Shown: positions 2,015-43,754, numbered from the stretch's first letter. The stretch: 64,000 bases of DNA from Marsupella aquatica (GCA_973895155.1 OZ316893.1:27153252-27217251); one strand, 5' to 3'. The notes: generated from the sequence alone by a model not told the origin. Translations and numbers: made by a program.

Positions 2015-4833
2015 AAATAGATAAACTCATGATCTACTTAATACCTGACAAAACAATGTGAGGCTCTTTGAAAAGCTTGAAAACTTCAAAACTCATGATC
2101 TCTTCAATGCTTGACAAAATCTGTCAATGTAGACTCATTGGAAAGCTAGACCAGCTAATACTGATGAAAAATCAGTGGATGAGTTATGGCTAGAGGTGAG
2201 ATACCTCTCAACCCCTGAGCTGTAGTTCACCCCTAAATGCGTTGAGACTCAACAATTGTTCAATTGTTCCCCTGTAGAAAACTGTAAACTATTACGATTT
2301 TATAATCACATAGCTTAAACAAAATTTATTTTTTGTATAATTTTTCCAGCCCTATATGATTTTTCAAGACACTGGTAAGGTATGATTCACCAGTAAAATA
2401 GATATTTCATAAAAAAAAGTTAATTTTTTGGAAAACACTTATTTTTTCAAAATTTCACTCAAAAACTTGTAATTTTTCTTGTAGTCACCTATTTCATTGG
2501 ATAAAAGAACCTAATGATTTAGACTCTTTGCATAGTTTGAGATCTTTAGAACAAAGTAATAGAAAAAGAGGAATATACAAAAATTCATGATGTCCTTAAT
2601 ACTTGACAATTTGCCAATGTAAGTCTCAATGAAAAGTTATTTCTTAGACGTGTCCAAGTCTCTAAACACAAAAGGTTTCATTTTGAGATGAGTGCAAAAA
2701 CTAATGTGAAATAGTTCTTGTTGAGGACAAAGCTAGCTCCTTGTGGAGCAATTGGATGAAGTACAAGCAAGGCCCACTGCCAAGGCCAAAGGATGTCCAC
2801 TTTTGCCATCTTTGTTGTGAAAATACTCATACATGGCTCCAACATGTGCAACACATACCACAAGAATTATAGACACTCATGGGTGGTCAGGTTCTTGCAT
2901 ACTTTTAGGATACAGCCTTTATTGTTATCATAATTTGAGTCAAAGCAGGAAGACTGGTAGTTTGGCTGAAGGAGAGAGTCAGGCCCTAGAGGCTGGTGCA
3001 CTCCGATGCCTTGTCTAAGTTGCAGATAATCTCCACCATGTTCATGACTTTATAGCAGCACCTATATACACCACTTAATTTCAGGAATGAGGGGCTCTTG
3101 GCCTGGGGAAGACAAAGAGCCTCCTAAGGGTGAGACACATGAGTCGGAACTCAGAATTTCTCCTAATTGCGGAGTGAATTGGATATTTAATTGCTTTGGG
3201 AGTCCAAAGTTCAGGAAGATTCCTAGGTCTCCAAAATGTCAAATCTTTGGGCATGATTATCTATTGCCTGACTCGATTAGACTAAATGAGAAGACTGTCG
3301 GGATCCAAAGGACATTGACACTATCTACTGAGAATGCACAAAGGAAATTGCAGCAAGAATCTTTTGCCTCTTAAAGCGCCACTGTAAAACCTGGTTACAC
3401 CAGGTTTCACCATTTTTAGTATACTTTTCTTGAAATTGTGGAGCAAAGTCTCATGCTAGAGGAGAGAAATGTGAAAAAGTGAAGAGTCTTGGACACTTCT
3501 CCTTTTATATGGACAGTGGTGGTTTAAGGAAGATGGAGGAAGATCTTAACCAAGAGCTTCACTGGGACAAGACGTTCTATACAATTTATTTTGGTGTGTG
3601 ACTGTCACAAACGGCCCCATGGTATGTTCAATGGCAGTAAAGCGTTGCAGCAAAATCTACTAGACCCGTGCTAGGCAAGATAATGTATGCTAAAGAGAAC
3701 CCAATGTTCAGTTTGAGTCAAGTAATGATTTGAGGTAAAAGGAAAAACAAAAAGTAAAACAAAAACTGTTCGCAAATAAATTTTTTATTAGCAATGCAAA
3801 TAGATTATTGTAAGTGAGGGAGCTAACAATGACAATTATCCTTTCAACAAATACAAATTGTACATTTAAGGTTGCAAAAATTGCAAATGATGTTGCTTCA
3901 TGTGAGTTAAAAATCTACTAATAATGTGAGCAAGTTTTTGCTTTTTTCTCATTTAGTTAAATACCTGGATCAATTTATTGAAAGTTCTTCTTGATTGATT
4001 TTGTATTCATATTGGGAGGCTGATTGGGATTAATGGAAGCACATGAAATGGACCATTTCTCTTCATTCAATGAGAGTGTATTGCTTCCACTTTTATTAAA
4101 TGAAGATTGACTGATACTTTTCTTTAAATTAAAACATTGCTATCCCTCTTCTATAAATTTTCAAATCACCAAAAAGTAAACTATTAAATAATCCATTAGA
4201 CTTATAATCAACATAAGCCATCAAAACATGGCTCGACGTGTCAAGAAAATATGCACCTTTACTAATTTGTGCATCATATGAAAAAGCCAACATATCGATC
4301 TGATGAGTTACTTATGTCATAGCAAAATTATGGTAGAAATATCACTGGCAACCTTGCTAACAATATTTAATATATCATGAATAAGAACCTGCATAAAAAT
4401 GCATATGTTTAGGCTATTAATCAAAGCATTCAATGTTGATCACAAATTTTTCCAAGGATGAAGGACCTAATTTTTTGTGATCCTACAACATTGAGTAATA
4501 ATAAAACTACTTTTTAAAGGAATTATCATTTTAGTATCATTTTAGCAACTATGCTAGCAATATTATTATTCCAAATCAACAAAACAACTTCCTGCCATTA
4601 TTGAGTAATTTTGTTAGCCATACTCCTACAAATATTGATCAATAGCCAAAATCAACATAAATTATAAACTAGCATTGAGTCATAACTCCTTTTCAGAGGC
4701 ATCATCACTCTATAGTGTCAGCAACCTAGGTAATTATGTTCATATTCAAAATGTTCAGCATAGACTGATCTATTGATATTTAGTGATGATCATTCCTTAA
4801 ATTCATTATTGTTTTATGATTATTATCATTGAC

Positions 4834-7800
4834 TGTGATGCCTAGCCAGGAATCACTAGGCCAGTTAAAATGGTAAAATCGGAAGTGTACCCTGAAAACA
4901 CCTTAGTATAGTAACAAAACAAGGACAATATAAACAATTAAGGGTAACTATGGAACCCAAGCCAAGGCCGGAAGTAAGAACGCCACGGCAGGGAACGCGA
5001 TTAGGTATGGGCGCGCTAAGTGCCGGCGGCTATGGGTAACCAACGGGAAGGGAGACCAGGCAAGGGGGGTAAGGACCGATCACAATGAATGGTGGCTCAT
5101 TTGTGAGCACAAACCAAGCAGACGATTACGAGAAGCCAACTGCTGTCAGTTGCTTAGGCACTATGGGCGGGAGTAGATACCGACTATCAACTCAAGGAGG
5201 GCATGAGCAACGTCAATCAAGCTGCTCATTTCTGGGGATGCCTGTTCGAACGGGCAACTGAGTACATTGGGACCTACGAGGACGAAGAATTAGAAAGGGC
5301 AGCTCGAGAACGGCAGGAGCTCGCTCGACTGTGGGAACTGCAAAAGTCTGCCTTCCTAGGAGGAGAACTTATCAAGGCCGAGTTCTTGTGGACTCAAACT
5401 GCCAATCAGCTCGACGACCTTCTGTTTTGTGAGAACAGAATCGTAGGCATTTGGGAAGCCATCAACCGTTGCAACGACATACATTGGGACCTAAAGGGTA
5501 GCATGAAGGTGTGGACAAAGGCAACCGTGCTTGGAGAAACATCCACAGCAGCCGCCATGAAGAGGAAAGGGTCCAACAACGAAGAGGCCACCCCCGCAAA
5601 GAGAACAAGGTCGGCAACACCAAAGAAGCCAGCCGAGCAAGGGAGGAGGAGGCAGGGGGAAGCTGAAGAAGAGGAGGTCGACCCAATCAATGTCGTTCCA
5701 ACGAGGGATGACACCTGGAGGGGTTGGGCGTCGACCCTCCCAGAGGAAGTGCAATTATACTTTGCATGAGAGGAGGATGCATGCTTTACGGCTATGCAGA
5801 CTCGGAAATACCAGGGCTTCATGGCCGGATCCGGCTTGGAAGCCTTCGTGAAATTACCATGGCTGAAGCCGGAGGTGCCGGATTCTGACTTATTAGAATT
5901 CGTGGGATCATGGGATTCCGAGACAATTCCACAAGGGTGTATGGGAAGGATTTTTATCTCACTTCCCAGGTGATTGCCGAAGTGTTTGGCTTGCCGATGG
6001 GCAATAAGACCAAAGTAGATACTCGGAAGACCTTGCCAGACAAGGAGTTCAGATCATTCCCAAGGCCATCGACAAAGAACGGCTTCTTCCGGAACATCTG
6101 CACCAGCCCGCACATTGGTGAGATGATCGATTTCTTGCGGGTAACCATGCCTGCAACTTGCCGAGGCCAGAGATTGGCAAGGCACAGGTCTACCTAGCGG
6201 AGAGGTCAGACCCAAGTCGGGACTCCAACGGGTACCTCCTCACCCAACTAAAAAAGATCTTGAAGGAGGAACAACAGGTGATCGGTCATGGAAGCGTATC
6301 TGGGCTTGGCTATCACATACCGTTGTTGTGCCGGTATGCCTGGAGTCAGATTTTTGCCCCAGTACTTCCCCTACAGGCAAGGGCACCAGAAGAGGTTCGG
6401 AACAGAGGCCGGCAGCAGAGAAACCCAACCAGCCCGACAGTCCTACGATCGAGCAAGTGTTTAGGCCGAGGACGGAAAACTTGTCGATGCAGCAACCAGG
6501 CATGCAGAATCTTCTGAAATTGCTGGAGAAGGAAAAGAAGGCTACGACGGCGACGGCAACGGCACCGGTACAGGACACTGCTCAAGAGGCAGGCCTAAAG
6601 CGACTCACAAGGGAAAACCCCTTTACCAAAGCCAAGGAAAGAAGGAGGCCGGAACACGAGCCGGGGGTTTGGATGTATGTGGAAGCCGCGAGTCCAAAAA
6701 CCAATGGAGAGCAACCCAAAGCTCCTGGTCGCGATGAAGAGAAGGAGAGGACAACCTGGAAGCTGGAGGAGGAACCAGGACCCGTGAGCTGTGTTCGGCA
6801 AGAGGCCGTGTTCACAGCAAGACCAGGAGAGCAACGGGGGGAGCCGGTAGTCCAAGCCGAGGAGGAGGTGGTGGAGGACTATGGCAATGACGACTCCGGC
6901 TACGGGTCAAACCATCATGTCCCAGGAGTGAGGACATGTGGCCGCTTCATCCCCACGCTTCCTAGAGTAGTTCGAGGAGACCCCAACCACCAGAGGTTGC
7001 TCCCCCGAGATTTGACGGGATAAAACAGACGGCACAAGAGTTGCAAGAGCAACTCAGGGAAGAAGAGGAGGCAGCCCTGGCCAAGGAGAAGGATTTACCT
7101 TGGGGAGAATGGCCAGAGGACATCCGGCGGCTTGCAGAAAAATGAAGCAGCCCTCCACCCACGTTAGAAGAGGTCCGAAAGGCGGCTTGGGAACAAAGGC
7201 CGCGGTGGGTGATGTCGATGACTACTACCCACTCCACATATGCGCAAGACAGAGCCATGGAGTACGGGGAGATGTGTGGGGAACTTGCGCTCAGCATCTT
7301 TGGGGAGGAGTTGGAGCAAGGACCTTTTTTCCAGAGAGAGATGTTGGAAAAAAGCCGATTGGAGGAAGCGGTGGCTTTGGAAAGGATGAAGAAGGACGAG
7401 GTCATCCGATGGCTTAGGGAGAAGGAAGCCGAGGCAGAGGACCTGAAGGCGGCCAAGAAAGCCCAAGATGAGCTACGGATTAAGCGACATGAGCTCAACA
7501 TCATGCAGGGGAAACTGGATACCGCTTAGTCTGATAATCAGATTATCAAAGATAAACTGACTCAGACTCAAGGGGAGTTGGCCGACGCGGTCAAGGAGAA
7601 GGAGAGGGCGCCAAAGAGGGAGCTCGAGGATCTCCGTAGAGCCCTTGAGCAGAAGGAGGCCAAGTTAGGGACATGTTATCAAGGGATTATTGTGCTACAA
7701 CAGGAGCTTGCATCCTTGACGGCCAGCTTGAAGGCCGACATGCGTGAGAAGGATGATATGCTCGATCAGACTTACGCCAAGATGAACCAGATGGAGTTTG

Positions 7801-9428
7801 AGGTCGTCCGAGAGCTCGACAAGGAACTGAGAGCAACCCAGGAAGAGAGGGCTGCCTTGCAGAAGGAATTGGAGGAAGTGCAGAAAGAGCTAGAGAAGGT
7901 GCGCGGGGACCTGGACAGAACGCTGGAAGAGTTGGAGGAAAGCACGCGGAAGCTGGAGAACTTACAACGGCGAGCCGACAACCAAACGAAGCGGCTGAAG
8001 AAACAAGCCGCAATATTTAAGTGCTTGGCCTCATCAGTTCAAGCTCCAGTTGTGGCAACAAGGTTGCTAGGGGTAGTACTAGCCGAGGGACAAGCCGCGG
8101 CACTCGCACCGGTGCCGGAGGTAGGTGGCAAGGGGAAGGGACCAGCTGCCAAACCAGGGAAGAAAAAGAAGCGGAAACCTTCTGGGTCATGGAGCAGCGC
8201 GGCTTCTCAAGCCACCATGACCAAGGAGGAGAACACGGCACCAACCTCAGGCAAGGTCATGGCATAGGATTCAATTGTCCTAGAAGGCGGGGATGGCAAG
8301 GCCGAGGCCGGGACGATCGTTGATGAAGCCAGGGTAGCGGATCCATCACTAGAGCAGGCCAAAGCTGAGACCAAAGCCGAGGGTGGACCCGGTCAGGCCA
8401 CGGGAGAGTTGACTCGGTCTGGGGCACGTAATCTGTCAGAAGACGGACCTACGGTAGTGGCTACGGAGGAAACATTGGGGGCGTCTGGCATTGAGGATCA
8501 GCCACCGCTACCATGACGGTGGTGGAGGGCCGCTCCTTTTAAGGAGGGAGGACATGGAGGGAGGAGGCGTGAGTGGGCAGGGCGAGCACAAATCTCCAAG
8601 TTTAGAATTAGGATCAGGACCAAGAGACGGCCCTAACACTTAGATTAGTGGGATTGCGGATCCGCTGGTAATAGCAACACTTGTGCTCTTGCCTCGCTGT
8701 ACATAGGTAGATTATAAATATGATAGATTAGGCTTACGCTGCAAGGAATTAGGAGGATCCACTGCCAGGATAAGTACCTGGGCAGCGGGGAGTTTTGGGC
8801 CTTTTTCTTTAGCAATTTTTTAGTGCACCAGCAGAGCTGGGATCAAGTAGTAAAAGAAGCTCTCGATTAGTTATCGGGTTAGTTATACAGTGACCCTTGT
8901 GTATATTCATGTTTCCTCATGCCTAAGAGATGAATAGAGTTGGCCTCACGGCTTAGTTCGCAAATCTTGTGTATGAGAAGTACTGTTTGTATGGCAAGTG
9001 CATGGTATAACTCAGTCAGAAGGAGTCATTTTGCTATTTGTGTGTCGTATTAACTTGTTTGAAGATTGCCCACATCACCCAAGAGAGAAGGGAAGTAAGC
9101 AAGGTAGTAAGAGTTGGATGTGTCGAGCTGAGAGAGGTCTTAGCGGCTAACCCAAGCCAATTGGGGATCATTCCGGCGGTGGAATCCAAACATACCTAAA
9201 GGGAGACCAGGAGAGGAAGACAAAGGAAGGCATAGATTAGGCCGGCTACTTATCTCATGACCCGATGAAGGATCTGTCCAGTATATGTGTGTAAAATGTT
9301 AGTAGAAGAGAGTTAGCAGTGTCCCATGCCGATAAGCCGCGGAACCGGCCTTGCCGAGAGATGAAACCTACGGGAATTGGCTTGTGCAAGGGGGTTCTTG
9401 GGTTTAGGGAGCCATGGGACGCACCACA
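4834..9428 (+). mobile_element. Element A: 4.6-kb solo-LTR-like unit with TG...CA termini carrying a decayed protein-coding gene
   Basis: Starts TGTGATGC and ends GCACCACA (7/8 inverted match). Flanks are TTGAC (4829-4833) and CTGAC (9429-9433), a 5-bp TSD with 1 mismatch. GC content shifts abruptly against the AT-rich flanks. No RT, integrase or transposase motifs. Confidence 0.8.
5203..8516 (+). pseudogene. Element A ORF: PMD/plant-transposon-protein-like domain, low-complexity linker and long coiled coil (stops and frameshifts)
   Basis: Reading through TGA at 5767 gives GLEAFVKLPW...LLEFVGSWDSET, then after a frameshift NSTRVYGKDFYLTSQVIAEVFGLPMG...KNGFF. ORFs 7209 and 7578 are in the same frame, separated by a TAG, and are heptad/EK-rich. 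The protein is similar to the element B ORF. Confidence 0.65.
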
Positions 9429-27340: not shown

Positions 27341-28252
27341 CTTCAGGCAGAAATTCCTGTGCGTCGTTATTTGTATGTGGAGACAGATGAGACAGCACGG
27401 AGGGTCTCATTGCGACATGTGGCTATGTTGGTGGATAGATATCCACAATTGCTGCTAGTGGATGTTGTTTGTGGTTATCAGCATGCACTACCTGTTGATA
27501 TTTCATTGTTGGGGGCGGATCATCTACATCGTGTTGGCCCCATTGATTTGGTGATTGCTGGTTGACCATGTCAGGGCCAATCTAGAGCTGGCGTTGGGCA
27601 TGGACTTCATGATCCACGCTCTGCATTATTTTGGGAGATGTTATGGGTGCTGCGTCATCTCTAGCTACATCAGACACAGTCTCCAACATACATTTTGGAG
27701 AATGTGCCATTGTTAGGTGATGATCGTAGTCGGATTGTTGCCAGTGTTCACCAGGTGAGGTCTTGGATTGGACCTGCTATGTTATTGGATACTACATGTG
27801 TGGATTCTCGTGCACATCGTCCACGCTTGTGGTGGACTAATTTGATCCCATGTGAGGTGCTGAAGCGCGCATTTGACAGCATTCCACGCTCACCCGCCTT
27901 AGTGGTGGATGCTATTTTGGATCTAGGGCGTCGTGCATAGGGTGTGACCCAACCTGATAGACCTCCATTGGCAATGGTCAATGCAGTTGGGCGCCCACGT
28001 TGTGCATTACCCACTCTTGTAAGCCACTCTACTTCATATGCATTCAGAGCAGGTGGCCCTGGACTTGTGTGGGACACAGCTCTCCAGCAGTTAGTGGAAC
28101 CTACTGCTGATGAGAGAGAGCGTGCTATGGGATTTTTGACTGGCACCACTGTAGTTGCCTCTGTGTCAGAGGGTTTGCGGCGCCAGGTTCTTGGTCAAGC
28201 AATGGATCTGAATTGTTTGACTTGGATTATCAGCTTGGGAGTAGCTGAATAG
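27341..28252 (+). pseudogene. DNMT3-like C5 cytosine methyltransferase domain of the Gypsy polyprotein (motif I lost, in-frame stops)
   Basis: One frame contains motif II YLYVE, motif IV DLVIAG*PCQGQSRAG...GLHDPRSALF, motif VI YILENV, motif VIII AHRPRLWWTNL, motif IX ERERAMGF and motif X RRQVLGQAMD. ORFs 27359, 27695, 27944 and the RT-proximal ORF 28508 all share this frame. Confidence 0.9.
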
Positions 28253-31200
28253 TTGCGGATGCGCTCTGCTGGAATTACTGATTGTCCCTTGGTGAGCTTG
28301 CGGTCCACTGAGACAGTACTGACCACAGTTGGGGGCGAGCAGATAGTCCATGGACCTATGGCAGGATTGGCCAAGGCTGGACAGATTGTTGAGCAGGAAG
28401 GGACTGCTCAATCTACTACTAAATAGCAATCATTGGCTATCTCTTCTACCCTACAAAGAGATATTAGGGATTTGGTGGAGAGTTGGGAACCATAGCTTGG
28501 CCTTAAGTTGACAGGGGAGGAGAGACGTTGCATGCATCGATTCCCGAAGAGTTACTGGAATTGTTTTGCATTTAGCATGAAGGATTTGGGGACATTAAAG
28601 GGTCCTGGTATTCAGATTGAATTGGCTAGTGATGCGCCAATCTTTCGTAGGCCATATCATTACAGTGACATGGAAAAGAGCTTTGATTCAAAGCATAACT
28701 CAAGATTTGTTGGAGGCTGGATTGGTGGAGATTTCATATGGGGAGTATGCATCTACCACAGTGATGCCAGCCAAGAAGGATGTGCATGGCAATTACACAG
28801 ATAGGCGCATGTGTGGTGATTACAAACCCATTAATCGCCAGACAAAATCTGATAGATATGCCATGCCCACACCTGAGGAGATCTTTGATGCTGTGGGACA
28901 TGCAAAGGTTTTCAGTTCATTGGATCTGAGGGTAGGGTACCATCAGCTTCCAATTAGGCATGCTGACTGGTCCAAGATAGTATTCTGGGGGATTGATTCT
29001 TATGGCAAAGATCGTTTGTATCAGTGGTATTCTTACCATTTGGGTTGAAGAATGCACCAGCTGAGTTCCAGAGAGTCATGGATCGAATCCTTGTAGGTTT
29101 GGATTTTGTCAGATGTTATATTGATGATATTTTGGTTTATTCTTCTATTGTGGAAGAACATCAGCAGCACTTGTAGATTGTGTTGGAGAGATTGAGAGCA
29201 CATGGGTTGAAGCTCCATCCTAGCAAGTGTAAGTTCTTCCAAGACCAAATTGAGTATTTGGGCCACGCTATATACCCAGGGGGATTGGGTGTACAGCAGA
29301 CTAAAGTGGAGGCCATTACACAGATTCCTTGTCCTACTGATGTGAGTAGAGTTCATGCATTCTTGGGATTGGCGAGCTACTAAAGGAGGTATGTTAAAGG
29401 ATTTAGCCAGCTTGCTAAACCTTTGACCATACTCACTAAGTTGGATCAGGAATGGATTTGGGATGATGACCAAGAGCATGCCTTTCAGGAGTTGAAGCAA
29501 AGGTTGGCACCATCCCCTATTTTGAGAAGACCCATTTCAGGCAGACCATTTCAACTACACACTGATTGGAGTGGAGTAGGACTTGGAGCAGTGCTGACTC
29601 AGAAGGATGATGAGGGGAATGAGTTTGTTGTGGCTTATGCCAGTAGATCAAACAATTCAGCAGAGGCTAAGTATAGCTCTTATGAGGGAGAGTGTTTGGC
29701 AGCAGTGACTGTGGGCTGTTGCACATTTTCGTTGCTACTTGTTTGGTAACCCCTTCACCTTGATCATTGATCATCAACCTCTTAAGTGGTTAATGGAGTT
29801 TGACAAGCTTACAGGGAAGCTTGCACGATGGGCGTTGTTACAGGAGTATGATTTCCAGGTGGTGCATAGGCCTGGAAAAGTGAACTTGGATGCAGATGGA
29901 TTAAACCGCAATCCATGTACCAGTCAGCAAGATGAGACTGGAGCCAGATGGCATGATGAGTCAGATAAGGAGATGGTGCCAGGATGGCATGCATCTGCCT
30001 TTCTTTGTTGGGTGCCAGCATATAGTGGATCCGTGGACTCTACCTCATTGGATGGAGTGAATGAGGAGTCTTCAGATGTGGATGTTGGTGAGGTAACTTC
30101 TGGACAACAAGATATTCACAATGATGTGAGAGTGTTGGAATATCTGCGTAGTGGTTCTATTGTTGGCAGTGTTGATGCCAAAGAACGTGACAGGGTCCTA
30201 CAGAGAGCCAAGAGGTTTCGATGGGAGGGAAACCATCTTTTGAGAGTATTGCATGATGGTAGGGTGTTGGTGGTACCAAAACCATCACAACAAGTACATT
30301 TGGTGCGACATGCACACGAGGAGTTGGGGCACTTTGGTGTGAAGCACACTTATAGCTTGCTACAGACACAGTATTGGTGGCATGGTATGCACATTCATGT
30401 CCAGCAGTTGATAGCTAAGTGTGTGGTATGTGATAGAGTGAGAGCATCATTTAATGCTCCCACTCCCCAGTTGCACCCGTTGCCGATCATGGGTTTGGGA
30501 TATCATTGGAGTTTGGATTTTGCTGGTCCATTACCTCTTACCCAACGTCATAATCGGTATGTTTTGGTCATGGTGGAGCACTTCTCCAAATGGATTGAGC
30601 TAGTGGGATTACCCGATAAAGCTAGTGGAGGAGTTGCTACTACATTTTTGGATTGTGTACTCAGTCATTTTGGAGCACCAGCTGAGGTGTTGACTGATCA
30701 GGGAACTGAGTTCCGTGGAGAGTTTGAGAGTTTGTGTGAACAAGCTCTGATTGATCATCGTACTACCTCTCGTGATCATCCTGAGGCAGATGGATTAGCT
30801 GAGAGAGTTGTGCAAACTGTGAAGAGAGGATTGCGTAAGTATGGCTTGCAGGTTAGTCATTTGGGAGATTGAGATCTCGAGCTACATTGGTTAGCTATGG
30901 GCTACCATTTCAGTCGGCAAGCATCACTTGCATCCTTCTCACCTTACTTTTTGCTCTATGGTAGAGAGCTAGATTTGCCAGCAGCTATTCGTCGTGATGC
31001 TGCACCAGTTGTGAACTTGGATGATCTTGATGTTTGGATCAAGGTGTGTTCAGAGAGAGCACGGGTATTTCAGAGAGTGATGCCCATGGATTTTGACAAC
31101 CTTGCCATTGCCCAACATCATGATACTTTGAGGTATGCCACTATTCGTGGAGGAGGTTACCGTGCAAGCATTCGACAATTTCATCCTGGTGATTATGTTT

Positions 31201-31412
31201 ATTTGCAGCAGACAGCACCCACAACACTTGATGTGACCGCAGGCCAGACAATCTTACGTGTCCGTGAAGTGTTGCCTTCTGGTGTCTTGATGTTGGAGGG
31301 ACGCGATGGTATGGTTTGGAAGGATCATGTGCGCAATTGTGCACCATGTCACCTTCCCAACATTGATGGTACAGTAGAGCCAAGCTTGGCACATGTTCGT
31401 GTTGGCTTGAAA

Positions 31413-31549
31413 TGTATATTGTGTGGATTTGCTCAGGGAGCAGCTACTATGTTGATTTGTGATAAGTGTTCTTGAGGATGGCACATGTCGTGTTTGACAC
31501 CACCATGCAGGTGATTCCTAGTGGATCATGGTTGTGTCCTCAGTGTCGG
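31413..31549 (+). pseudogene. PHD finger at the integrase C-terminus
   Basis: CILCGFAQGAATMLICDKCS*GWHMSCLTPP, then after a frameshift IPSGSWLCPQC: a C4HC3 pattern with the conserved Trp. Confidence 0.85.
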
Positions 31550-31727
31550 TGAAGCCGACTAGTTATCATTTGTGTTCTCTTGGCAGATATGGATTGCAGG
31601 TAGGTGATCAATGGGGCTCACTTGCACCCGGCCCCCTGATCTTCACACCTAAAAAGGTGTATATCAACCTTGTAGAACTCACGGCTAGCTAGAGTTAGGG
31701 GACCTTACTCCCAGCTAGGGGGGCAAT

Positions 31728-32334
31728 TGTGGGTTTTGGACATGTGTGGACATGAGTTCCACTTTTATTCCATTCTCTTGTGTTTGTGATTTGGCAGTGT
31801 GACTATGTCTGGATGTATGTGACAAGCGATGTATGTTGTGTAGCGATGTGTATGCGCACGACAGCTGTCACACCATTCTAGGTAGTGTTAGAGTGTATCG
31901 TACTATCTAGATCCGTATGTTTGGTATGTGTGCTCTATGAGCCAATAAGGTTCCGTCCGGTTTGTGTGAGAGGGTACTTCTCACTTGTGAGGCATTGAAA
32001 GGTCATCTTTCAATGTTGAGGCTTGGAGAGAGAGGAGCTTGAGTGGCTATGGTGGCTATGAGCTCCGCTTGTGTAACGTGCATTCCTTGAGTAGTGCAAG
32101 GTGCATTGGCTTGACATACGTGTGTGATCGGATTGGTGCGAGATCGATGGGGTATTGTTGACCGGGATCGTTGTGCCGATTGTTGAGGAGATTATTGTGG
32201 GTTTTGGACATGTGTGGACATGAGTTCCACTTTTATTCCATTCTCTTGTGTTTGTGATGTGGCAGTGTGACTATGTCTGGATGTATGTGACAAGCAATGT
32301 ATGTTGTGTAGTGATGTGTATGCGCACGACAACA
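31728..32334 (+). repeat. Gypsy 3' LTR region with an A-B-A internal direct repeat
   Basis: A block of about 136 bp, TGTGGGTTTTGGACATGTGTGG...GCGCACGACA, lies at 31728-31863 and 32196-32331 and flanks a core starting TGTCACACC at 31866. Confidence 0.85.
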
Positions 32335-32857
32335 TCCATATAGTGAGACCCCTAAGTGTTTTCCCTAGCTCTTTTGGCTTCCACCATGGCAAACAAGAAT
32401 TTTGATGGCTCATCCCCCTATCCAAGCTAATTAATCCTAGCAATACTCTTATTATGATGAGCTTCTTCTAGTTCCCTTTCTCTTACATTCTGTGACGTCG
32501 CCGGTACGGTGGCTAATAAATGATTCGGCCTAACCACGCTTAACACGCGCAGTAGAGGTATCTTAGGCCGTAATTATTAGCATAACGACAGTATTTAGGT
32601 AGCCATTATGAGTAGAAAATCATTAGTCAATAAGGGGCATTCATGTTCGGGCTGGTGGCGGGTTGCCATTCGCATGCCCGGGTTGCGAGCGTGTAATGGG
32701 CCCTCCCCTTTCCCCCTCGGGTCTGTATAACAAACTTTGGGAGGTGGCCACTGACACGCGCTGACCCAGACTGGTGGAGTGGCCGGTACACTGCAAGCGT
32801 GAAAGGCTCGGCATATAAGCGATGAGGAAGCGACGGGCGATCAATGAGCTCTCAGGG

Positions 32858-32870
32858 TATAAAAAGGGGG
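32858..32870 (+). promoter_or_regulatory. Candidate TATA box of element B
   Basis: TATAAAAAGGGGG about 370 bp inside the left end, followed by a CT-rich leader and an ATG at 32996. Confidence 0.5.
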
Positions 32871-32995
32871 TCGATCCTTTGCAGTGCACCAATTCTTCAG
32901 TCCACGCGCCAGCTTCGACCCTAGTTCTCTCGCTTATCTTTAGTCGCCTTCCATCTCCTTTGAATGTCGCACACGATCCTTTCCAGTTTGGCCAT

Positions 32996-35642
32996 ATGAT
33001 TCTGGACGCAGTTCCTGTCTATTGGAGGGCACTTGGCCGACTCGTTGAAACACGCCAACCCGTGACAATACGAGATTGAACGCGAGTACAAGAGAGCCAT
33101 CCGCCTAGCAGGCCTCCATCACTATCTCCTTAACTTTGATTACCCGTCCCAGAGCGAGCTTTACCAACCCGAAGAAATATCAGGGTACTTCTTCAACGGA
33201 GGCAAATATATCGGCTTCTGGGAGACATTGCTTTGGCTCCCGGACAAGGTCTTCAATATCCCGGGCACGATCGACTTACAACGGCACCACTTTGACCATA
33301 TCCCCGCTCGGGTCCAAGACATCATCAACAGCAAGTCCAGTGCTACCCGATCTACAAGGGCGTCTACACTTGCATCAGAAAACCTCTACCGGCACCTACA
33401 AAATTTCATGGCAACTACACCATCGATCACCGGTGCCAGCCCAGCCATGCTCGTACCCGCACCAGTCCAGGCTCAGGCTCAGTCTCAGCCTCAACCTCAA
33501 CCTCAACCTAGCCGATCCCCACCGCCGGTCGCCCCGCCAGTACAAGTACACTTCGTCGTCAACGTTGTGGACCTCAACGACGATGAAGACGATACCTTGC
33601 CCCTGCTCAGGCAGCCTAGAGGAGCAAGCACCCAGGGAGCCGGCACTACATTGGCCCTTCCCCAGACCCGGACTCGAGTAGCAGCTCCAGCGGATAACAC
33701 GGTGACCGTAGCCTCCCCGGCCCCAATACTAACGGCGGTGGCACTACCCATACCCGATTGGGAGGATGGGGAGGTGTCACCCTCCCCAAGCCATCACGGG
33801 AGCCAATCTCGGGGAAAGAAGAGGAAGGAACCCGCAGCTGTATCCGGGCTACCCATGGCCACGGTAGCCGCGGCCAAGGTAACAATGCACCGCATGGGGG
33901 AAAACGTGCATAAGAACATCCTCCACCCAAACATGCGGTGTACTTGAAGACTCGGGGGTTCGAGCACCTCGCCTCTCTCCCCTGGAACACCTACAGATAC
34001 TATAGGGAGGACATGACAAAGTTCATCAAGAATTATGACGACGTCCGTCAACATACTCGGCTGCGGGGAAGGAATATGTCCCTCATAGAGGAGCGGCTCA
34101 AGATGATCTTTGGGCTACCCGAGGGCGATCACCGAGTCGAATCACGGGCTCTCGGGGGCAAGGGAGCCAAGTACCAATCATTGAGTTTTCCCTCTGAGGG
34201 GTCAGTGGACAACGGGTTCGTGATGAGGACCTGCCTCATCCTCGAGATAGCTGAGCGGCTGGAGTTCCAGAGGTATGCCCTCCACATGATGGAACCCCGG
34301 GGCGAGATCTCCGCTGCCCAGGTTATCTAGGTTGAGACCTATCAACCTAGGAAGTGGGCTTTGTACTTCGCTAAGAAGTTCCATGAAGAGATGGAGCGGA
34401 AAAGGAAGTCGCTATACATCGGCAGGAAGACGTATTTCGCGAGCCACATCGAGATCATTCTCGAGTGGTACACCCGGTTTGATCAACAAACCCTTCCCCA
34501 GGTCAACGTAACTAAGTTGGTCCCGACTAAGTGGATCTTCCCGGCCTTGGAGAGACGGCCTCAACCCGAGGCCCAAAGTTTGGCGGCAACGCAAGCCCCA
34601 CCCATCCAACCTCCACAGGTAGCGATAGTCATGGCCGAAGAAGTACCAGAAGAGGCAGTGATCGCAACCTTAGACGCGATCAACCAGGTCAGGCCTGGTG
34701 CAGAAGTCGGGGCGGTGGAGGCCTTGCCCGAGCCTGAGGGTCCAGAAGACCCACTAGTGGCTATTCCACAGGACAGGCCGATGGTGGAGGAGGACACTCC
34801 AACCCCTTCCAACACTACATCCCCAGGGCTGGATGTCACTACCCCGGCTCCCACGCGAGTTAACGTCTGCCCGTGCCCAACTCCAGACGGGCATAACCTG
34901 GACCACTCGGAACTCTTCGTACCGGGTACATTTCTAAATGGGCTTTTGGGAGATTTCTCCCAACAAATAGCCTGGGATACCGAGGAGTCCATGGCTCGGA
35001 AGGTAGCCTACTTCTTCAATCAAGAGTTGGTTACCGCAGTAAAGGCAGATCAGGCTCAATCGGAGGCCCTTCAGCGGATAGAGCGGTACTGGGTTGAGTC
35101 CGTGTACCTAAAGGATGAAGTTGCGGCTCAAGAGGCGGAGCTTCTGCAACTACGACCCAAGGTTGCAGCCGCCGATGAGTTGTTAGCAAATGCGCATGCC
35201 CTTACCGCCTTAGCCGAATAGGCCAAAGCCGGGAAGGAGGCCAAGATTGCACGGCTTCGGACCCAGGTTGACGTACAATTTGAAGAACCAAACTGTCATC
35301 TGGCACAAAGACCTAGAGGAGGCCAAAGAGCGGGCCCAGCGTGACACTGCAGAGATTGCCACTTTGCAGGCCGAAGTGGCATGGCTTCAAGCCGAAGCCG
35401 AGAAACAGACCCAGGTGGTGGATAAGCTGAAGAGCAACGCCCAGCAACTGGAAGAGGCATACCAGGAGGCAGCTGAGGAGACGGACGCGGCAAAGCAAGA
35501 AAATGAATCTCTGCTGGACCAAGTCCAGCTCCTCAAGGCGGCAACGATAGACTCCGTAGGCAACGGGATGGCTGCTCCCACTCGGACGGCTCTGGCAAGC
35601 GCACCAGATATTAGCGGAGGGTTAGGCTTAAAATACACTTAG
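32996..35642 (+). pseudogene. Element B ORF: N-terminal domain, Pro/Gln-rich linker, PMD/plant-transposon-protein-like domain and coiled coil
   Basis: GFEHLASLPW...MTKFIKNYDDVRQHTRLRGRNMSLIEERLKMIFGLPEG...DNGF...EISAAQV parallels element A (LPW...FGLP.G...NGF...EIGKAQV). The C-terminal heptad-rich region spans about 35050-35540. Confidence 0.7.
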
Positions 35643-38600
35643 GAGTAGCTAAAACAGGCTGGTAGGACAAGTGCCGGCCAAAAGATAGCGGCGCTGACAC
35701 ATTAGCCAGCCTGTGTAGAATAGGTTAGACTAATAGGACAAGCAGGCACCAGCTTAGCAAGGATATAAGTTAGCGTAGATTCTGGCACGAGGCCAGATCG
35801 GTCCTCAGCCCTTAGTATTTTGCGGCCCCCCAGTAGAGGTTAGGGAAGGGGAATTTTAGACTCAGAGGTTGGCCATTCGCAGTACGCGCGGGGAGTCCCA
35901 AACTCGGTGAAGTATCGGAGTGCCAAGAGGAGGGTATACGACTAAGCTCGTTGGGCAAGTGCGGAGCTGGGCTCCGTTGTAGTGTATACTCCTTGGCCTT
36001 GGGCCCGTTCGTTCATGAGGTGTCGGGTCAACCAATCGTAAAGTGTATGATCATAAATGAATGAAATCCTTTCTCCTTAATTCCTTCGTGTAAATCAAGA
36101 TTTTTGTTATGTATGAATGCATGTATGAGTCTCGTGTGCAAGTATCAACGTCGGGCCGAACACGTTATGCCAACCGTGCACGGGGTGCCGGATACGGGTA
36201 TGGGGTTGCGAGCCCGGGTTGAGCCCTTGTACTAATGGATCCGGATCGAAGGCGATAACATGAAGGCTTAGAAGTCTGTGAGCCGGGATCGACCCCATGT
36301 CGACTAAGGTACGTTCCGGCAGCGGAACACAAACTATACCTAGGAGGTGTCTATACATAATAGTAAGCGCACTTAGCGCTAGTTTACGTGAGTTAGGAGC
36401 ATTCTATGCGTCCCTCCCTACCCGAACCCTCATATTTATGAAAATTGTGCCTGTCTAAGCCAAAGCCCGGGGTAAGGCCTAGGCAGACGACGTGACACAT
36501 TTTGTTCAGTGAGGTGAAATCTTGAATTGTGTCTTCAAAATAATCTTCCATGATAGCAATCTTCAAAAGAAAAAGTTTAGTCCTTAGCCTAATCATCTCT
36601 TCATCCTAGGGTACCGGGGAGTATTGGAGTTCCATGTAGCACCGTCAAAGTCTTTGGACAACATCTGCAAATCTCAAATGAGGATCAATCGATCCACCAC
36701 TTCCAACTTTCCAAGCTTCTGGCAATGAATTGATATTTGCTTTGTTCCTAAGAATAGCCAAGTTTGCCTTGAAGTAGTTAGCTCTACGTACATCTATAGC
36801 AGTAGTGCTTCAAGGAGTCATCCAAAAGAGATAATGATAGGTCCATGATCCGATAGAGCTGAGGATCCATCGTGTTTGAGGTCCATCACCTCCGCCATCC
36901 ATTGCCCCTTTTCACTTAGGTAAAAGCAGTCTAATCGGGACTGAACCAATTTGCCATTTCTTACCATTCGCCATGTGAAATGTGATCCGGTAACCTGTCC
37001 CAAAATTTTTGGGCATCTTGTAAGTTGAATCATAGTTTTGGTAAATGCCAAATGTCTAGCTTCCTTCCACGAATTTTGGGAAATAGGCTAGTAGAATCTT
37101 CTTGTTTTTCCGTCATATTAAAGTCACCACTTATTATTCATTTCCCCTGGGTAAAGTGTTCAGCAAATCATTCCACAATAGGGTACGTTCACTCATTGAG
37201 TTAGGTGCATAGATGCTAATCAATCCATATATTTCATTATCTGATTGTAATGTAATCCAAACATCTTGTTCTTTATCTAGAATGTGTTAGACTCTACCCA
37301 TTGACCGGACCAACCGGTCACCCGGCACACCTATATGTACCATGACCCTACTCATTCTATTGACAGTTACTATTCATTATCCTATCATACGTTATCAGCA
37401 CGACTCACCCAGCTTAGAGCACAGGAGAGCGAAAAGCTATGGCAGGAGAGAGAAGAGAAATACCAATGACAGAAAAAAGGGAGCACCGAGCCAGGTCCGT
37501 CAAAGTTGGCTCACCAAGGAGATGTCCAGTTTTTATCCTCCGACAATGAATTTCAGGAACTGAGGAAGGTGAATTAAGATTGAGGTGACTGGATTAAATT
37601 CATTATGAAGATTCAAAGCAATTTGTTACAATCACGGACTCTCCACTGTCCAACTCGAGATTCGGTTATCCAGGGCGATGTACAAAGAGTTTGCTGGTGA
37701 AATGAGAAATCTACAACAAAGTTATCATTCTACCGCATATGGAGAGTCACCAATGGACAGACTCTTTCAATCAGACTGCAGACCATCAGAAGACGATTCC
37801 TCCCAAGAACCAATCAATCAAACAGAAGAAACGATCAATCAATCGAGTTTGAGAGCAAATCGAGTTTGTAAGCAATTGAGAAGTAGACTCAAAACATAGA
37901 AGAAGTAGACCTATTGAAACAAGAACCAGAGAACGCGGCTCAGATGGACGAAGATACGCAAATAGAGAGGAAATTGACCACTCAAGCAAAATTGAACCAG
38001 ATATCCGGATGACATTGAGCTTTTCCTCATCGGAGTGTAGCTCGTGAGATCAACAATTGATAAGGACATAGAGAACACAAAGAACAAGAGAGCAGAAAAG
38101 AAAGGATCGGTTAGACAAGGGATCCGAGGCTGCTTGATGAGAAGGATCCCTATGCATATTTCGTTGTTGAAAAGGGCTGCATGAACAAAACTTGAGATCT
38201 TGTCGAAGAAGACTGAGAGAAATAGAAGCAGATAGGAAGCAAATTGCAAATAGAAGCACAAAAAGCAAGTTGAAGAATCGAAGGAGAGCCAATTGACCGA
38301 GATTCGAAACAACACCTGAAGGACGAGGTAAGGAGGCGAGAACGGGGCTGTTCGAAGGGAAAGAACAACATTGCTGAACACCCATTGACAAAATGTCGAG
38401 ATAAAGCCCCTAACCACTTCACCCTCCTTAAGTGCAAATTTCAACAAGGCAATCTTGTTTTCCGTGTATTCATGTGCACTTAACAACTTAAGTGCATCCC
38501 TTCATAACTGCACACCATAAAAAGGAAACTTAACTTACAAAGCCGCACGTGCACTTAACCAGGGTATGAGTAACTAATCACCCATAATTGCACAAACTGA

Positions 38601-38858
38601 AAAAATCCATTACTGCACAATATAACAAAGGAAACAACACATACAAAGAAAACTTTGCAATTAACCAAATAACAAGGAAAACCTAAATCCTAAGTGCAAA
38701 CCCTAAAACTGAATTCCAAATTTGCATGCTCTCTGCACCAAGTCCCACTTTGCATGCCGCATAAATGTGCTTTGTCGACTTTTACTTATGGCTATTACTC
38801 TATAAGCCCTAATTACTATCAAAAACGAGCTTAGAAAATAGTGCCATAGCAACCCTAA

Positions 38859-41800
38859 ATGGCCAACCTGGAGAAATTGACTTTCCCACCTTTAGAAATT
38901 GATGGTAACAATTACCTCGAGTGGTCCATGAACCTCAAGGAGAACCTGACCTCTTTAACCCTACTCCCAGCTATAGGGATAGCTCAACCCATACTAGACC
39001 CGTTAACCAAGGTCAATGAATCAAAGGCCCTAGTATTTCTCCGACGTCATATCCATAGGTTCTTGCAAAGACAATACATGCACCTAACCACCCCTCGCAA
39101 GCTATGGACAACGCTTAAGACCCGATTTGACCACCAGAAATTGGTCGAACTACATAGAGCCCACCAAGAATGGCTAAACTTACGGGTCCAGGATTTTACA
39201 TCCATCTCAACCTACAATAGTGAGCTATTCAGAATCACCTCAACCCTTGCACTCTGTGGCGAGCCAGTCATAGACAAGGACTTGCTAGAAAAAACCTTGT
39301 CCACGTTCCACTCTTCAAACGTACTACTATCAACCCAGTACCGGAATATGAAGTTCGGACAATACTCAGAGCTCATCGCCCACCTCCTAGTAACAGAAAG
39401 GAACCAAGAGCTCCTTTTAGTTAACTCTAGGAAACGTCCTACGAGCACACTACCCCCAAGACCAGAGAGAGAAACCCATCACATCGACAACGCTGGACCC
39501 TCTCATCAAGGCAGGATGACAAGCGCGCCAAGAATGGTAATAGGAGAAACACCCTCAACAGGGGAGTTTCTTCAACCAACACCAACAACGCGGCGCCTTT
39601 CGACGGGCCTTTTGAGGTTGCCCAAACGGGCACCCACAACAACAGAGTTTTTGAAACAACTTCACACACGGCCGAGGACGCGGACAAGGTCGAAGGAGAT
39701 ACCAGAATGACCGCCAAAGTGATCGGCCTCAACCTCGACCACAGCGAGAATGACCAAGATGCCACGAATGTGGCATGACCAACCATCTGGACCGCAACTA
39801 TAGGATTCCACAATACCTTAGAGATTTATACCAACAATCCCTACAAGATGGCCAAAACCCTAGGGCACCACCCCGTGAGACCCACGGGGCGTTTATGGAA
39901 TCCAGAGACTTATTTCAAGATTTTTCAGACACACCTACGCAACTTGAGGCACATTTAGTGGCGAGTAGCTCCACAACCCCAGACCTAAATAGTCCTAGCA
40001 CATGCATTATTGGTAGCACGACTACTCATACTATCCTTCGAGATAGAACTCTTTTCCACAAGATCACACCTTCAAGTAGATCACTGACCACTATCAATGG
40101 TCCTAGCCAGATAGAAGAGGGCTTTGGCCCAACTTCTATTTGACTTCCATAGGGTACAGAAATCCAGATAGAATCAGCTATTTTTGCCCCGAATGCAACC
40201 CGTAATGTCCTAAGCTTTAGGGATATACGAGCAAATGGACTCCACGTCCAAATAGAGGATACAAAAGATCATGAAGTAATCTATTTGGTTGAAAATACCC
40301 CTATGGGGAAAATCATTAAAGAGACTCTTTTCTCGTACCCATGCGGGTTTTACGTAACTCAAATTGAATGTTTGCATAACAATGCACAACCAAGTGAATT
40401 GCCCACGCTTTGGCATGCACGCCTTGGCCACCCTGGCAAACTAATAACAAGGCCCACGACATCAAAATTGCCAACCAAGATACCAAAATTCTTGGACATC
40501 ATACATGCGGATGTCTGCGGGCCAATTAACCCACCGAGCGAACCATTCTGCTACTTTATGGTATTGATCGATGCATCAACCAAATGGTCAAATGTGACCT
40601 TGCTTTCGACGCGGAACATGGTTATGCCTCGCATCTTGGCGCAAATCTTGCGCGTGAACGCACAATTTCCCGATCACCCCATTAAGACACTAAGGGTGGA
40701 CAATGCAGGGGAATTCACATCTGAAACATTTTGACGATTTCTGGACACCACTAGGTATCGATGTACAGTATCTTGTACCCCATGTGCATTTCCAGAATGG
40801 ATTAGCTGAAGCTGTCATTAAACACCTTCAGCTAATTGCACACCCACTACTAATGCAATCAAAACTCCCCGTCTCACCATGGGGACATGCCATATTACAG
40901 GCTAACGCATTAATTCAATACCGCCCATCAGCTTTTAATACTTATAGCCCATACCAAATTGCTAACGGTATCAAACCCGATCTATCCCACCTTTGTTCAT
41001 TTGGATGTCAAGTGATGGTCCCCATTACTCCACCCAAACGAACCAAGATGGGACCCCAACGACAGTTGGGGATATACATCGAATTTGACTCACCGTCCAT
41101 AATCAGATATATGGAGCCTACAACAGGCGACGTTTTTAAAGTCAATTTTTTAGATTGCCATTTTGATGAGCATATTTATCCACCATTAATAACCCCTGAA
41201 CACCCACTACCACCTTTGGAGTGGGAGAGACATTCGTCATTTTGGCAAGACCTTAGAACAAATCAGGGGGAGAAAGAAGTTCAACGAATTTTGCAACTCC
41301 ACAAGATTGTGGAAGAATTTCCCGACACTTTTGTCGATACATCACAAGTTACCCACTCACATATTCCAGCTGCGAGAGCATCCGCTCGCATCGAATTATC
41401 AAGAGAGCCAGCAAGTACATCCCAACCTCGTGCCAAACATGGCAGACCCTTGGGATCAAAAGATAAACAACCAAGAAGGCATGGTTCATCTATCCCTCCT
41501 TCACCTGACGTAGATCATACTGACTCCATAACTCATGAAGAGATCTCTATCCACTACGCACACACCGGTGCGATGTGGGATGGAATTACTACTTCAATAG
41601 ATGATGCTTTTGCATTAATGGTGGCAACACATATCAATGATGATACACTTGAACCAATTTCCATATTAGAATGCCAAAACAGACCAGATTGGCCTGAATG
41701 GCAAAAAGCTATCAATGGCAAATTAGATTTCCTACTAAGCAGACATACTTTTGGCCCAGTTGAGCCAACACCAAGAGACGTACACCTCATTGGCTACAAG

Positions 41801-43398
41801 TGGACCTTTGTCCGCAAAAAAATTGATAAAGGCCAGGTTGTACGCTACAAAGCACGTCTGGTAGGGAAAGGATTCACCCAACAATCGAGAATCCATTATG
41901 ATGAAATTTACTCACTGGTTATGGACAGCACAACATTTCGATACCTTATCGGATTTGTCATTTTCCATAAACTTAAGATGCGACAACTGGATGTCGCAAC
42001 CGCATATCTATATGGAACTTTAGACACTTGTCTATACATGCGATCACCTCCCAAGTTGGAGGAACGTCGTCAAGCTTTAGCTCAAGGCGCTACATTGCAT
42101 ATTCCATATTTACATAAGATTATCAACCGAACACATCAAGTTACACCTCATATGTCATCTACACATGTAACTCATCAAAATGATACCCCTGTGTCAGCCA
42201 TACGGCATACTCGCTATCTGCGTGTTGAAGGCATTATATGGCCTGAAACAAAGTGGCAGAGTATGACATCAAAGATTCACTGATGAGATGATTTCCATGA
42301 GTTTTTCCCGTGATGTAATTACTCCATGTTTATTTATTAAACATGTGGATGATGAATATGTCATCGTCTCTATTTATGTTGACGACTTAAACATATTTGG
42401 GACACCCCAAATTACAAAAGATACTATTACCCATCTCAAAACAACATTTGAGATGAAAGACCTTGGTCATACAAACTTTTGTTTAGGTTTACAATTGGAG
42501 ATCTTGCCTACTGGCATGATGCTCCATCAGACAACACAAACTGAAAAGATCCTAAAACAGTTCAATATGAACTTAGCACACCCATTAACGTCTCCAATGG
42601 TGGTACGTTCATTAGAAAACACTACTGATATTTTTCGTAAGCGCAAAGAACACAAACCACTATTAGTACCGGAAACTCCATATCTTTCTGCGATAGGAGC
42701 ATTAATGTATTTAGCAAATCAGACCCGACCAGACATTGCATTTGCAGTTAACTTACTAGCTAGGCACAGTGCAACTCTCACAGCCAGACACTGGAACGGA
42801 GTTAAGCACGTATTTAGGTACCTGCGTGGCACCACTGATACCGGGTTATTTTACCCATTCGGTGCAAACCACGAACTCACAAGATATGCGGATGCCGGAT
42901 ATCTTTCCGACATTGACACCGCAAAATCCCAAATCGGATATATTTTTACTATAGGGGGTACCACTTTTTCTTGGAAAAGCGTGAAACAGACCCTAACAGC
43001 AACCTCATCGAATCACTCAGAGATTTTAGCTCTACATGAGGCTAGTCGCGAAGCCGTTTGGTTATGATTTTTTATAAATCACATCAATACTAAATGCGGC
43101 CTACCAACACTAACGAAGCCTACTAATATCTTTGAATGAGGATAACGCAGCATGTATACAACAGATCACGAAAGGATTCATCAAAGGCGATCGAGTGAAG
43201 CACATAGCTCCAAAGTTCTTCTACATCCATGAGTTATATGGAACAAAGATCAACATTTTACAGATTTTAAGTGCAGACAACTGTGCAGATCTCTTCACCA
43301 AATCACTATCGCCGGTCATTCATCACCGACACTGCCAGGCGATTGGACTACGGAGCGTACGATGCATGATGACCATGAAGGATGCTGCTACACCATGA
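38859..43398 (+). pseudogene. Copia gag-pol, frameshifted
   Basis: ORF fragments 38859, 39775, 40285, 40703, 42288 and 43132 follow Copia order gag-PR-INT-RT-RH. LWHARLGHPG runs directly into KLITRP, so the CxxC half of the integrase zinc finger is deleted. Confidence 0.9.
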
Positions 43399-43609
43399 CT
43401 GATGATACTGACGACTTACTGTTGAGACAAATGTTGAAACTAGATTTACTATAGCATCTGACTTTATATAATATTGATACTTATTACGATGAGGACTGTT
43501 AGGGTGCACTCTTTTTCCTTTAGCACTCAAACTTTTTCTCTGCTACACCTGTAGAGTTTTTATTTAACTAGAGTTGATAAAGGTTTTTTAACGAGGTAGT
43601 CTACCTCAC

Positions 43610-43754
43610 TTGTACTCATATCATGTATACTCTATTAACATGGTATGATAGGTCTAGTCTATATTGTCTACATAGTTGTCAATTGTACTCATATCATGTA
43701 TACTCTATTAACATGGTATGATAGGTCTAGTCTATATTGTCTACATAGTTGTCA
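43610..43754. repeat. 73-bp-period tandem duplication in the Copia 3' UTR
   Basis: TTGTACTCATATCATGTATACTCTATTAACATGG...CATAGTTGTCA starts at 43610 and 43683; the copies are identical by eye. Confidence 0.92.

Follow-up and report, generated by a model that had tools for sequence, protein, structure and literature searches.

What kind of mobile DNA consists of essentially one gene, and what would the product of such a gene do? These questions are raised by element B, a 4,007-bp insertion at positions 32491-36497 of a 64,000-nucleotide stretch of the Marsupella aquatica genome (GCA_973895155.1 OZ316893.1:27153252-27217251; hereafter the window, in which positions are counted from the first letter). 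In the explanation proposed here, B is a solo long terminal repeat (LTR) that carries a gene for a protein with a VANC/PMD-type fold acting against host silencing, a reading to which, with both parts taken together, a probability of about 0.4 is assigned. The boundaries of the insertion, the gene and its protein family, the predicted fold of the protein and the nature of the unit are considered in turn.

A bounded insertion into a LINE

B begins with TG and ends with CA, its termini (Table 1) forming a 10-bp inverted repeat in which 9 of 10 positions are complementary. On either side lies one copy of a 5-bp target-site duplication (TSD), CATTC on the left and CATTT on the right. Once B and one copy of the TSD are removed, the minus-strand reading frame of a long interspersed nuclear element (LINE) runs unbroken across the junction. 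A preliminary description of this DNA had reported imperfect inverted TG...CA ends, a 5-bp TSD and LINE sequence that rejoins across the insertion; the first and last of these hold as described, the frame being continuous through the empty site, and the TSD is present but matches at 4 of 5 positions, an imperfection the description had not mentioned. We take the flanks to be LINE sequence from their endonuclease-type motifs (GDFN, SRLD and DHGP). Searches of Pfam and the PDB with the flank itself gave no relevant match, and a weak Pfam match to DUF4283 lies further upstream in the LINE direction (45204-45587).

The end signature was compared with its rate of chance occurrence in the window. 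Among 1,885,459 TG..CA pairs lying 2-8 kb apart, 15 combined a terminal inverted repeat of at least 9/10 with a TSD of at least 4/5, such that the signature of B, taken alone, is not beyond chance. The boundaries were accepted because independent evidence supports them, namely steps in contig depth, departures of contigs at 36497 and the LINE frame. Thus, in assembled contigs of four sequencing runs, which stem from at most two studies, may include the source of the window and are not independent of one another, summed contig depth rose at the left end of B from 45-318 to 16,566-88,680, that is, by two to three orders of magnitude, and dropped again at the right end, in each of the four runs. 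At the right end, 17 of 89 contigs diverged from the window exactly after 36497, and 24 of the 89 did so within 36497-36504. Whether other copies share the termini of B had been put forward as a check; in all four runs they have the 3' terminal base in common and then continue into different DNA, and at the 5' end the support from other copies is the depth step alone. Among the joints listed (15 of 53), no empty-site joint was found.

These data bear on the possibility that B derives from a conventional element, as an internal piece or through deletion, and is bounded by TG...CA and a TSD by accident. The 15 chance occurrences of the signature and the imperfect TSD would agree with such an origin, but the depth steps at both ends, the 17 contigs of other copies that stop matching at the same base, the rejoining LINE frame and the repetition of the same layout in a second element of the window (element A; Table 1) largely refute it, leaving it highly improbable. 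The insertion of B into the LINE is real.

The gene, its protein family and the predicted fold

The open reading frame (ORF) of B, beginning with an ATG at 32964, spans some 892 codons, in line with the 850-900 codons estimated earlier, and is interrupted by six lesions, namely four premature stops (32997, 33063, 34328 and 35219) and two frameshifts (near 33925 and near 35271). The present copy is dead, and the earlier idea that every solo LTR of this kind leaves an expressible gene behind is not borne out by it. At three of the six lesions, among the rows listed, other copies differ from the present one in all four runs, and transitions predominate among the differences between B and other copies. 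The protein domains had a greater summed depth than the linkers did, although contig depth cannot rank the parts of a gene and was used neither for selection nor for copy number. Over 33000-35272, B is collinear with P0031, an intact protein of 906 residues (E 1.3e-63). When four pieces of the ORF were scanned against Pfam, no gag, reverse transcriptase (RT), integrase or transposase match was found, as the preliminary description had maintained; across gene and family, Pfam returned sub-threshold coiled-coil matches only.

A profile built from two sequences, the cores of the B and A proteins, was used in a HMMER search of 1.84 billion representative proteins and recovered 28 at E<=1e-3, or 27 without P0027, which was dropped from the family as a tandem-repeat artefact. 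Word-based protein searches with the B core gave no matches, unlike this full search. The ORF is a true gene and belongs to a conserved protein family. Of 20 family matches looked up, six were proteins of Calypogeia fissa and the rest came without an organism; every named member is thus from this liverwort, and the family is unannotated. Two longer C. fissa homologues (809 and 642 amino acids) were found separately and have no precomputed Pfam domain. In the viral and metagenome contigs searched, no family locus with DNA context was found. Intact members measure 787-906 amino acids and share one layout. A helical domain at the N-terminus is joined by a disordered linker to a core of some 200 residues (predicted local distance difference test, pLDDT, about 90), and another linker leads from the core to a long coiled coil. 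The net charge of the core is positive in 14 of 16 alignment rows, with conserved lysine/arginine columns; R416, R449, R454, R463 and K488 of P0031 are among the conserved basic residues. No core among the 28 matches gave a Pfam hit. Many members are annotated as host genes. A shorter subgroup (P0005, P0022, P0026 and P0029; 174-489 amino acids), in which the core is followed by a short coiled coil and which has a fixed length in several runs, possibly represents domesticated host genes. Together, the common 3' terminus, the family with its intact members and the like-built element A uphold the earlier view of B as an integrase-type insertion that is essentially one gene.

The fold of the core was approached through AlphaFold2 models of two homologues, P0031 (whole) and P0010 (mostly core). 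With Foldseek, the top PDB match of both models was DNA-bound VANC21 (E 0.035, probability 1.00; and E 0.14, probability 0.90, TMq 0.46). VIA-align superimposed residues 322-539 of P0031 on VANC21 with Z 8.0, the root-mean-square deviation (rmsd) being 4.4 over 210 aligned residues; in the alignment of P0031, coiled-coil chains outranked VANC21 by way of the helical tail. In an unbiased search of 48,161 solved chains, VANC21 was matched with Z 7.0 and rmsd 4.3 over 188 residues, the sole other chain with Z of at least 2 scoring 2.1. The score is modest, yet the match stands alone and spans the whole domain. As such, a VANC21/PMD-like fold is predicted for the family core. A viral fold library gave no match at E<=0.001.

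Against this assignment, and against what is drawn from it, stand several points. The models are of homologues and not of B itself; neither Foldseek match reached E<=0.001; identity to VANC21 in the structural alignments was 8-11%; a Z of 7-8 falls within the range that the tool rates as common; and VANC21 was not recovered when PDB sequences were searched with a profile.

The function suggested for the B protein is drawn from this fold only, and a common fold by itself shows no function. In its own transposon, VANC21 binds to a short motif within non-coding stretches, and it brings about a loss of methylation (PMC5735166). The structure of VANC is homologous to that of the PMD protein MAIN, and a coiled coil is predicted to mediate the self-association of VANC21 (PMC13547354). 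Proteins of the MAIN/MAIL group associate with motifs in DNA and counteract Polycomb (10.1101/2024.09.27.615353), while MAIN and MAIL1, which share the fold, were first described as silencing factors (PMC5418596), which again speaks against the proposed role. On these grounds, we hold the chances of a DNA-binding, anti-silencing role for the B protein to be evenly poised. The protein of such an LTR or LTR-like unit might instead be an accessory factor with another job, such as integration targeting or RNA or particle handling, in the manner of the extra ORFs of Ogre, Athila and Retand. Such a job would fit the low structural scores, the long coiled coil and N-terminal domain that have no assigned role, the one of 31 family members that touches Transposase_32 at E 0.059, below the cut-off, and the heterogeneity of plant extra ORFs, most of them uncharacterised (PMC6317226). 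It is nonetheless rather unlikely, given that the core is basic and that the characterised proteins with this fold, namely VANC21, VANC6 and MAIN/MAIL1/MAIL2, work on chromatin at specific motifs in the DNA according to the accounts cited.

Around the ORF, the TATA box at 32858 and the AATGAA-type poly(A) region of the preliminary description were both recovered, as motif matches (the latter at 36056 and 36060). The two densest clusters of TTAG in the window lie at the end of the B ORF (10 copies) and behind the A ORF (8 copies), and TTAG is the top 4-mer in the pooled 3' regions of A and B (26 against 11.7 expected; family-wise error rate (FWER) p 0.009). These regions were picked after inspection of the data, and the enrichment in B alone is not significant (p 0.23), both of which detract from TTAG as a binding motif; the clusters could alternatively be an RNA-level signal. 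A second TATA-like stretch is found at 36352-36362, about 140 bp from the 3' end of B; were this the main promoter, the whole gene of B would lie inside a giant U3. In element A, a TATA-like box (about 4927) precedes the likely start codon (about 5085) by some 160 bp.

Table 1. Positions of element B, its parts and related features in the 64,000-nucleotide window
Feature	Position	Strand	Basis or remark
Left TSD copy, CATTC	32486..32490		4/5 match to right copy
Left terminus, TGTGACGTCG, att-like end	32491..32500	+	sequence; depth step in 4/4 runs
Right terminus, CGACGTGACA, common to other copies	36488..36497	+	sequence; contig departures
Right TSD copy, CATTT	36498..36502		sequence
Target DNA: remnant of LINE ORF2, downstream of the insertion	32335..32490	-	reading frame; motif
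Target DNA: remnant of LINE ORF2, upstream of the insertion; GDFN, SRLD and DHGP endonuclease-type motifs	36503..37283	-	reading frame; motifs
Decayed ORF of some 892 codons with 6 lesions (4 premature stops, 2 frameshifts)	32964..35642	+	collinear with intact P0031
N-terminal helical domain, about 120 amino acids, also in P0031, P0039, P0040 and P0046	32964..33330	+	no Pfam match
KKRK basic patch ahead of the core, possible nuclear localisation signal	33816..33827	+	sequence
Conserved core domain, about 190 amino acids, predicted VANC21/PMD-like fold, net charge +8	33926..34474	+	family hidden Markov model (HMM) iE 4e-57; homologue models
C-terminal coiled coil, limits approximate	34990..35550	+	sub-threshold coiled-coil Pfam matches; long helices 694-884 in P0031 model
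Small TTAG cluster, 4 copies, 5' non-coding part	32563..32626	+	not significant alone (B5+B3 FWER p 0.23)
TATA-like box, TATAAAA, then pyrimidine-rich leader	32858..32864	+	motif match only
Densest TTAG cluster of the window (10 in 250 bp), a candidate array of binding sites	35611..35859	+	motif count
Overlapping AATGAA hexamers at 36056 and 36060, then T/GT-rich tract; poly(A)-signal-like	36056..36065	+	motif match only
Element A, second family, DNA-unrelated, layout of B (TG...CA, TSD TTGAC/CTGAC, a single decayed ORF encoding the same core and a coiled coil, and a TTAG cluster)	4834..9428	+	sequence, profile
Fragment C, strongly decayed third core-domain copy	2771..3087	-	tblastn E 1.5e-10 with P0031; HMM iE 1.6e-5

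A solo LTR or a stand-alone unit

In the course of events proposed, a full LTR-internal-LTR element of Ty3/Gypsy type, autonomous or with a short internal part, would have integrated into the LINE, after which recombination between the two LTRs would have left a single LTR with its 5-bp duplication, this copy then decaying. Driven by the TATA box at 32858, the gene would be transcribed as far as about 36060, giving a short transcript internal to the LTR. Its product would enter the nucleus, oligomerise through the coiled coil and bind a short motif array, for which the TTAG-cored cluster behind the stop codon is the candidate; binding would hold the copies of the family transcriptionally open in trans, opposing silencing by the host.

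The first part of this explanation, that B is a solo LTR, is favoured because the ends are of integrase type, the TSD has 5 bp, the length is within the range of plant non-chromovirus LTRs (PMC6317226, PMC6431247, PMC3485330), long LTRs show an excess of solo copies and the GingerRoot pattern does not fit; on balance, we lean towards it. LTR elements other than chromoviruses have TSDs of 4 or 5 bp and LTRs of up to about 5 kb (PMC6317226), the LTR ends of Retrosat2 likewise finish in GTGACA (PMC3485330), and long LTRs form solo LTRs more readily (PMC7251063).

Comparison of the first and last 800 bp of B gave a score of 23, against a mean of 21 and a maximum of 29 for shuffled sequences, and self-BLAST of the window likewise revealed no terminal direct repeats in B; neither a primer-binding site (PBS) nor a polypurine tract (PPT) was found beside the present copy, all of which agrees with what the preliminary description had said of B. 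Several observations weigh against a solo LTR. No paired LTR, PBS, PPT or gag-pol partner of B was seen in the window or in the short-read contigs, the latter being unable to reveal paired LTRs. Both complete units in the window, A and B, are single. When loose ends behind the 3' end of B were pooled into five consensuses, no PBS was found in them. Agreement within the five sets was 0.65, 0.54, 0.47, 0.68 and 0.65 (n=4, 4, 7, 3 and 2), as compared with 0.54, 0.54, 0.46, 0.57 and 0.63 for unrelated flanks; three sets were at the level for unrelated flanks and two (0.65, n=4; 0.68, n=3) exceeded the 97.5% bound. Only a minority of common continuations is thus allowed behind the 3' end, by a test that is weak in that a continuation shared by copies would probably escape it if its overlap with the end were some 30 bases, the shortest listed piece being 39 bp. 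Finally, in C. fissa, CAM6101869/70 and CAM6101879/80 (P0043, P0020, P0044 and P0042) form two 98%-identical copies on one contig, eight accessions apart, with mirrored gene order and common breaks; as read from accession order only, this suggests inverted rather than direct orientation, possibly an inverted duplication.

The same observations bear on the principal alternative, in which the 4-kb unit is whole, a stand-alone, non-autonomous, gene-carrying element whose TG...CA ends are recognised by an integrase-like DDE enzyme acting in trans, the VANC-fold protein being supplied in return. The DNA-unrelated families A and B would then occur, as they do here, only as single units, each with its own TSD; copies continue into mostly unrelated DNA behind the 3' end; the unit is, at the level of motifs, self-contained as a gene, with promoter, ORF and poly(A)-like signal; the two longer homologues are without a Pfam domain, hence without a gag/pol fusion; and integrase-type DNA transposons, in the form of GingerRoot, do exist in non-seed plants (PMC6839031). 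The inverted repeat of B is, however, 10 bp long and imperfect, as opposed to 100-150 bp in GingerRoot, and the TSD comprises 5 and not 6 bp (PMC6839031). The contig test, moreover, is blind to overlaps of about 30 bases and so compatible with a high ratio of solo to full copies. A further point concerns propagation. The standard LTR copying route needs an LTR pair, a PBS and a PPT, and because B has none of these it is not copyable by that route as it stands; no route by which a lone LTR-like unit would be amplified is known to us, which counts against a stand-alone element. That B is such an element is accordingly a possibility to be taken seriously, but a less probable one than a solo LTR.

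Other candidates were rejected. A terminal-repeat retrotransposon in miniature (TRIM) or large retrotransposon derivative (LARD) as the complete unit is ruled out by the lack of terminal direct repeats, and Ginger/GingerRoot by the 10-bp repeat, the 5-bp TSD and the lack of a DDE transposase. The integrase domain rve was not matched in B and was detected in the neighbouring Gypsy element, and the single ORF of B is wholly explained by a non-DDE family. Neither that methyltransferase-bearing Gypsy nor the neighbouring Copia element could serve as the internal region of B, as each has its own repeats and no copy of B on its far side.

These neighbours were seen in passing. The first, at 24673-32331, is a decayed Ty3/Gypsy element in which RT, RNase H, integrase and a PHD-like finger are preceded by a C5 cytosine methyltransferase ORF (27329-28249; PF00145, E 9.8e-9). 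It has no normal LTR pair, showing instead an inverted repeat (24673-24900/31865-32090) and a direct repeat (31726-31863/32194-32331); its terminal repeat is high-copy in contig depth, and it resembles an element of Klebsormidium, KnitGypsy-Dnmt3, for which DIRS-like repeats have been described (PMC5890265), the present element lying in a probable land plant. The second, at 37284-43881, is a Copia element with LTRs of about 106 bp that are 94.5% identical, inserted into the LINE that also received B. At two distant places, 10593-10945 and 58279-59215, lie degenerate tandem repeats that are rich in purines and related to each other. Elements A and B show no DNA similarity, and no termini were found for fragment C.

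Should B be an LTR, solo-LTR formation, normally a means of element removal, would leave an intact gene cassette in place; should it stand alone, it would be an undescribed kind of mobile element. Because such units carry neither gag/pol nor a Pfam match, annotation would be expected to label them host genes, as has seemingly happened in C. fissa.

Relation to known systems

In the literature searched, with most subscription papers outside its coverage, no description was found of the B family or of a plant LTR containing a whole protein gene. Tat, Phygy and Selgy elements have been reported in a liverwort, the accessible part of that report mentioning no B-like ORF (PMC12885004).

Ginger and GingerRoot elements resemble B in that they can have TG...CA ends, include gene-carrying copies and occur in non-seed plants, and differ in their terminal inverted repeats of 100-150 bp, 6-bp TSD (4-bp in Ginger1) and DDE transposase (PMC6839031). 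The long-LTR Ty3/Gypsy elements Ogre, Retand, Athila and Retrosat2/RIRE3 come closer, with LTRs of 2-6.5 kb, TG...CA ends, TSDs of 4-5 bp, abundant solo LTRs and extra ORFs of no known function (PMC6317226, PMC3485330, PMC6431247). In the accounts cited of these elements, the extra ORFs lie in the internal region, upstream or downstream of gag-pol, and the LTRs are treated as non-coding, whereas in B a gene of 890 codons makes up two thirds of the unit and an internal region was not found. This comparison extends to an animal retrovirus. An LTR with a protein-coding ORF is exemplified by sag of mouse mammary tumour virus, although that virus infects vertebrates, its ORF lies in U3 upstream of the main promoter and its protein is unrelated. 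The PMD-encoding extra ORF of Ogre lies in the internal region and not in the LTR.

With PMD proteins, both the Gypsy-borne PMD-A and the host MAIN, MAIL1 and MAIL2 (PMC5418596, 10.1101/2024.09.27.615353), the B protein would share a fold group, by way of the homology of VANC and MAIN and not by direct comparison, and an association with Ty3/Gypsy elements, which for B is itself presumed; host PMD proteins further show a motif-directed activity on chromatin. The cut-offs of PMD (PF10536) and Transposase_32 (PF20167) were reached by none of 31 family members, and PMD has been described from angiosperms, where Gypsy elements carry PMD-A and where it is considered fully open how the Gypsy-borne and the genic forms of PMD are related by descent (PMC5418596). 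A liverwort family borne by transposable elements and predicted to have the VANC fold bears on this question. A broader picture can be entertained, though it is doubtful as a whole: liverwort genomes may hold several integrase-type families of 4-5 kb, be they giant LTRs or a new stand-alone class, each a self-contained anti-silencing cassette combining a VANC-fold DNA-binding gene with its own motif array, whose solo copies would supply an unsilencing factor acting in trans; the VANC/PMD fold would then be an ancient retroelement weapon of land plants, older than angiosperm MAIN and VANC.

The nearest counterparts of the B protein are VANC21 and VANC6 of the Mutator-like VANDAL transposons (PDB 9LNJ and 9LNK; PMC5735166, PMC13547354). 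Shared with these are the predicted fold of the core (Z 7-8 over 188-210 aligned residues), a coiled coil, the status of an accessory gene encoded by a transposable element and a short motif clustered in non-coding DNA, the role of the motif in B being that of a candidate. B differs in lacking both a match at the level of sequence and a transposase, and in having the TG...CA ends and 5-bp TSD of an LTR-type unit rather than being a VANDAL/Mutator element. It also comes from a bryophyte, whereas VANC is described from dicots, is called dicot-specific and was probably captured from host MAIN-like genes (PMC13547354). As judged from the modelled fold, the B protein probably works like a VANC or PMD factor, while falling outside the VANC family as this is defined, having neither a Mutator host nor a sequence match.

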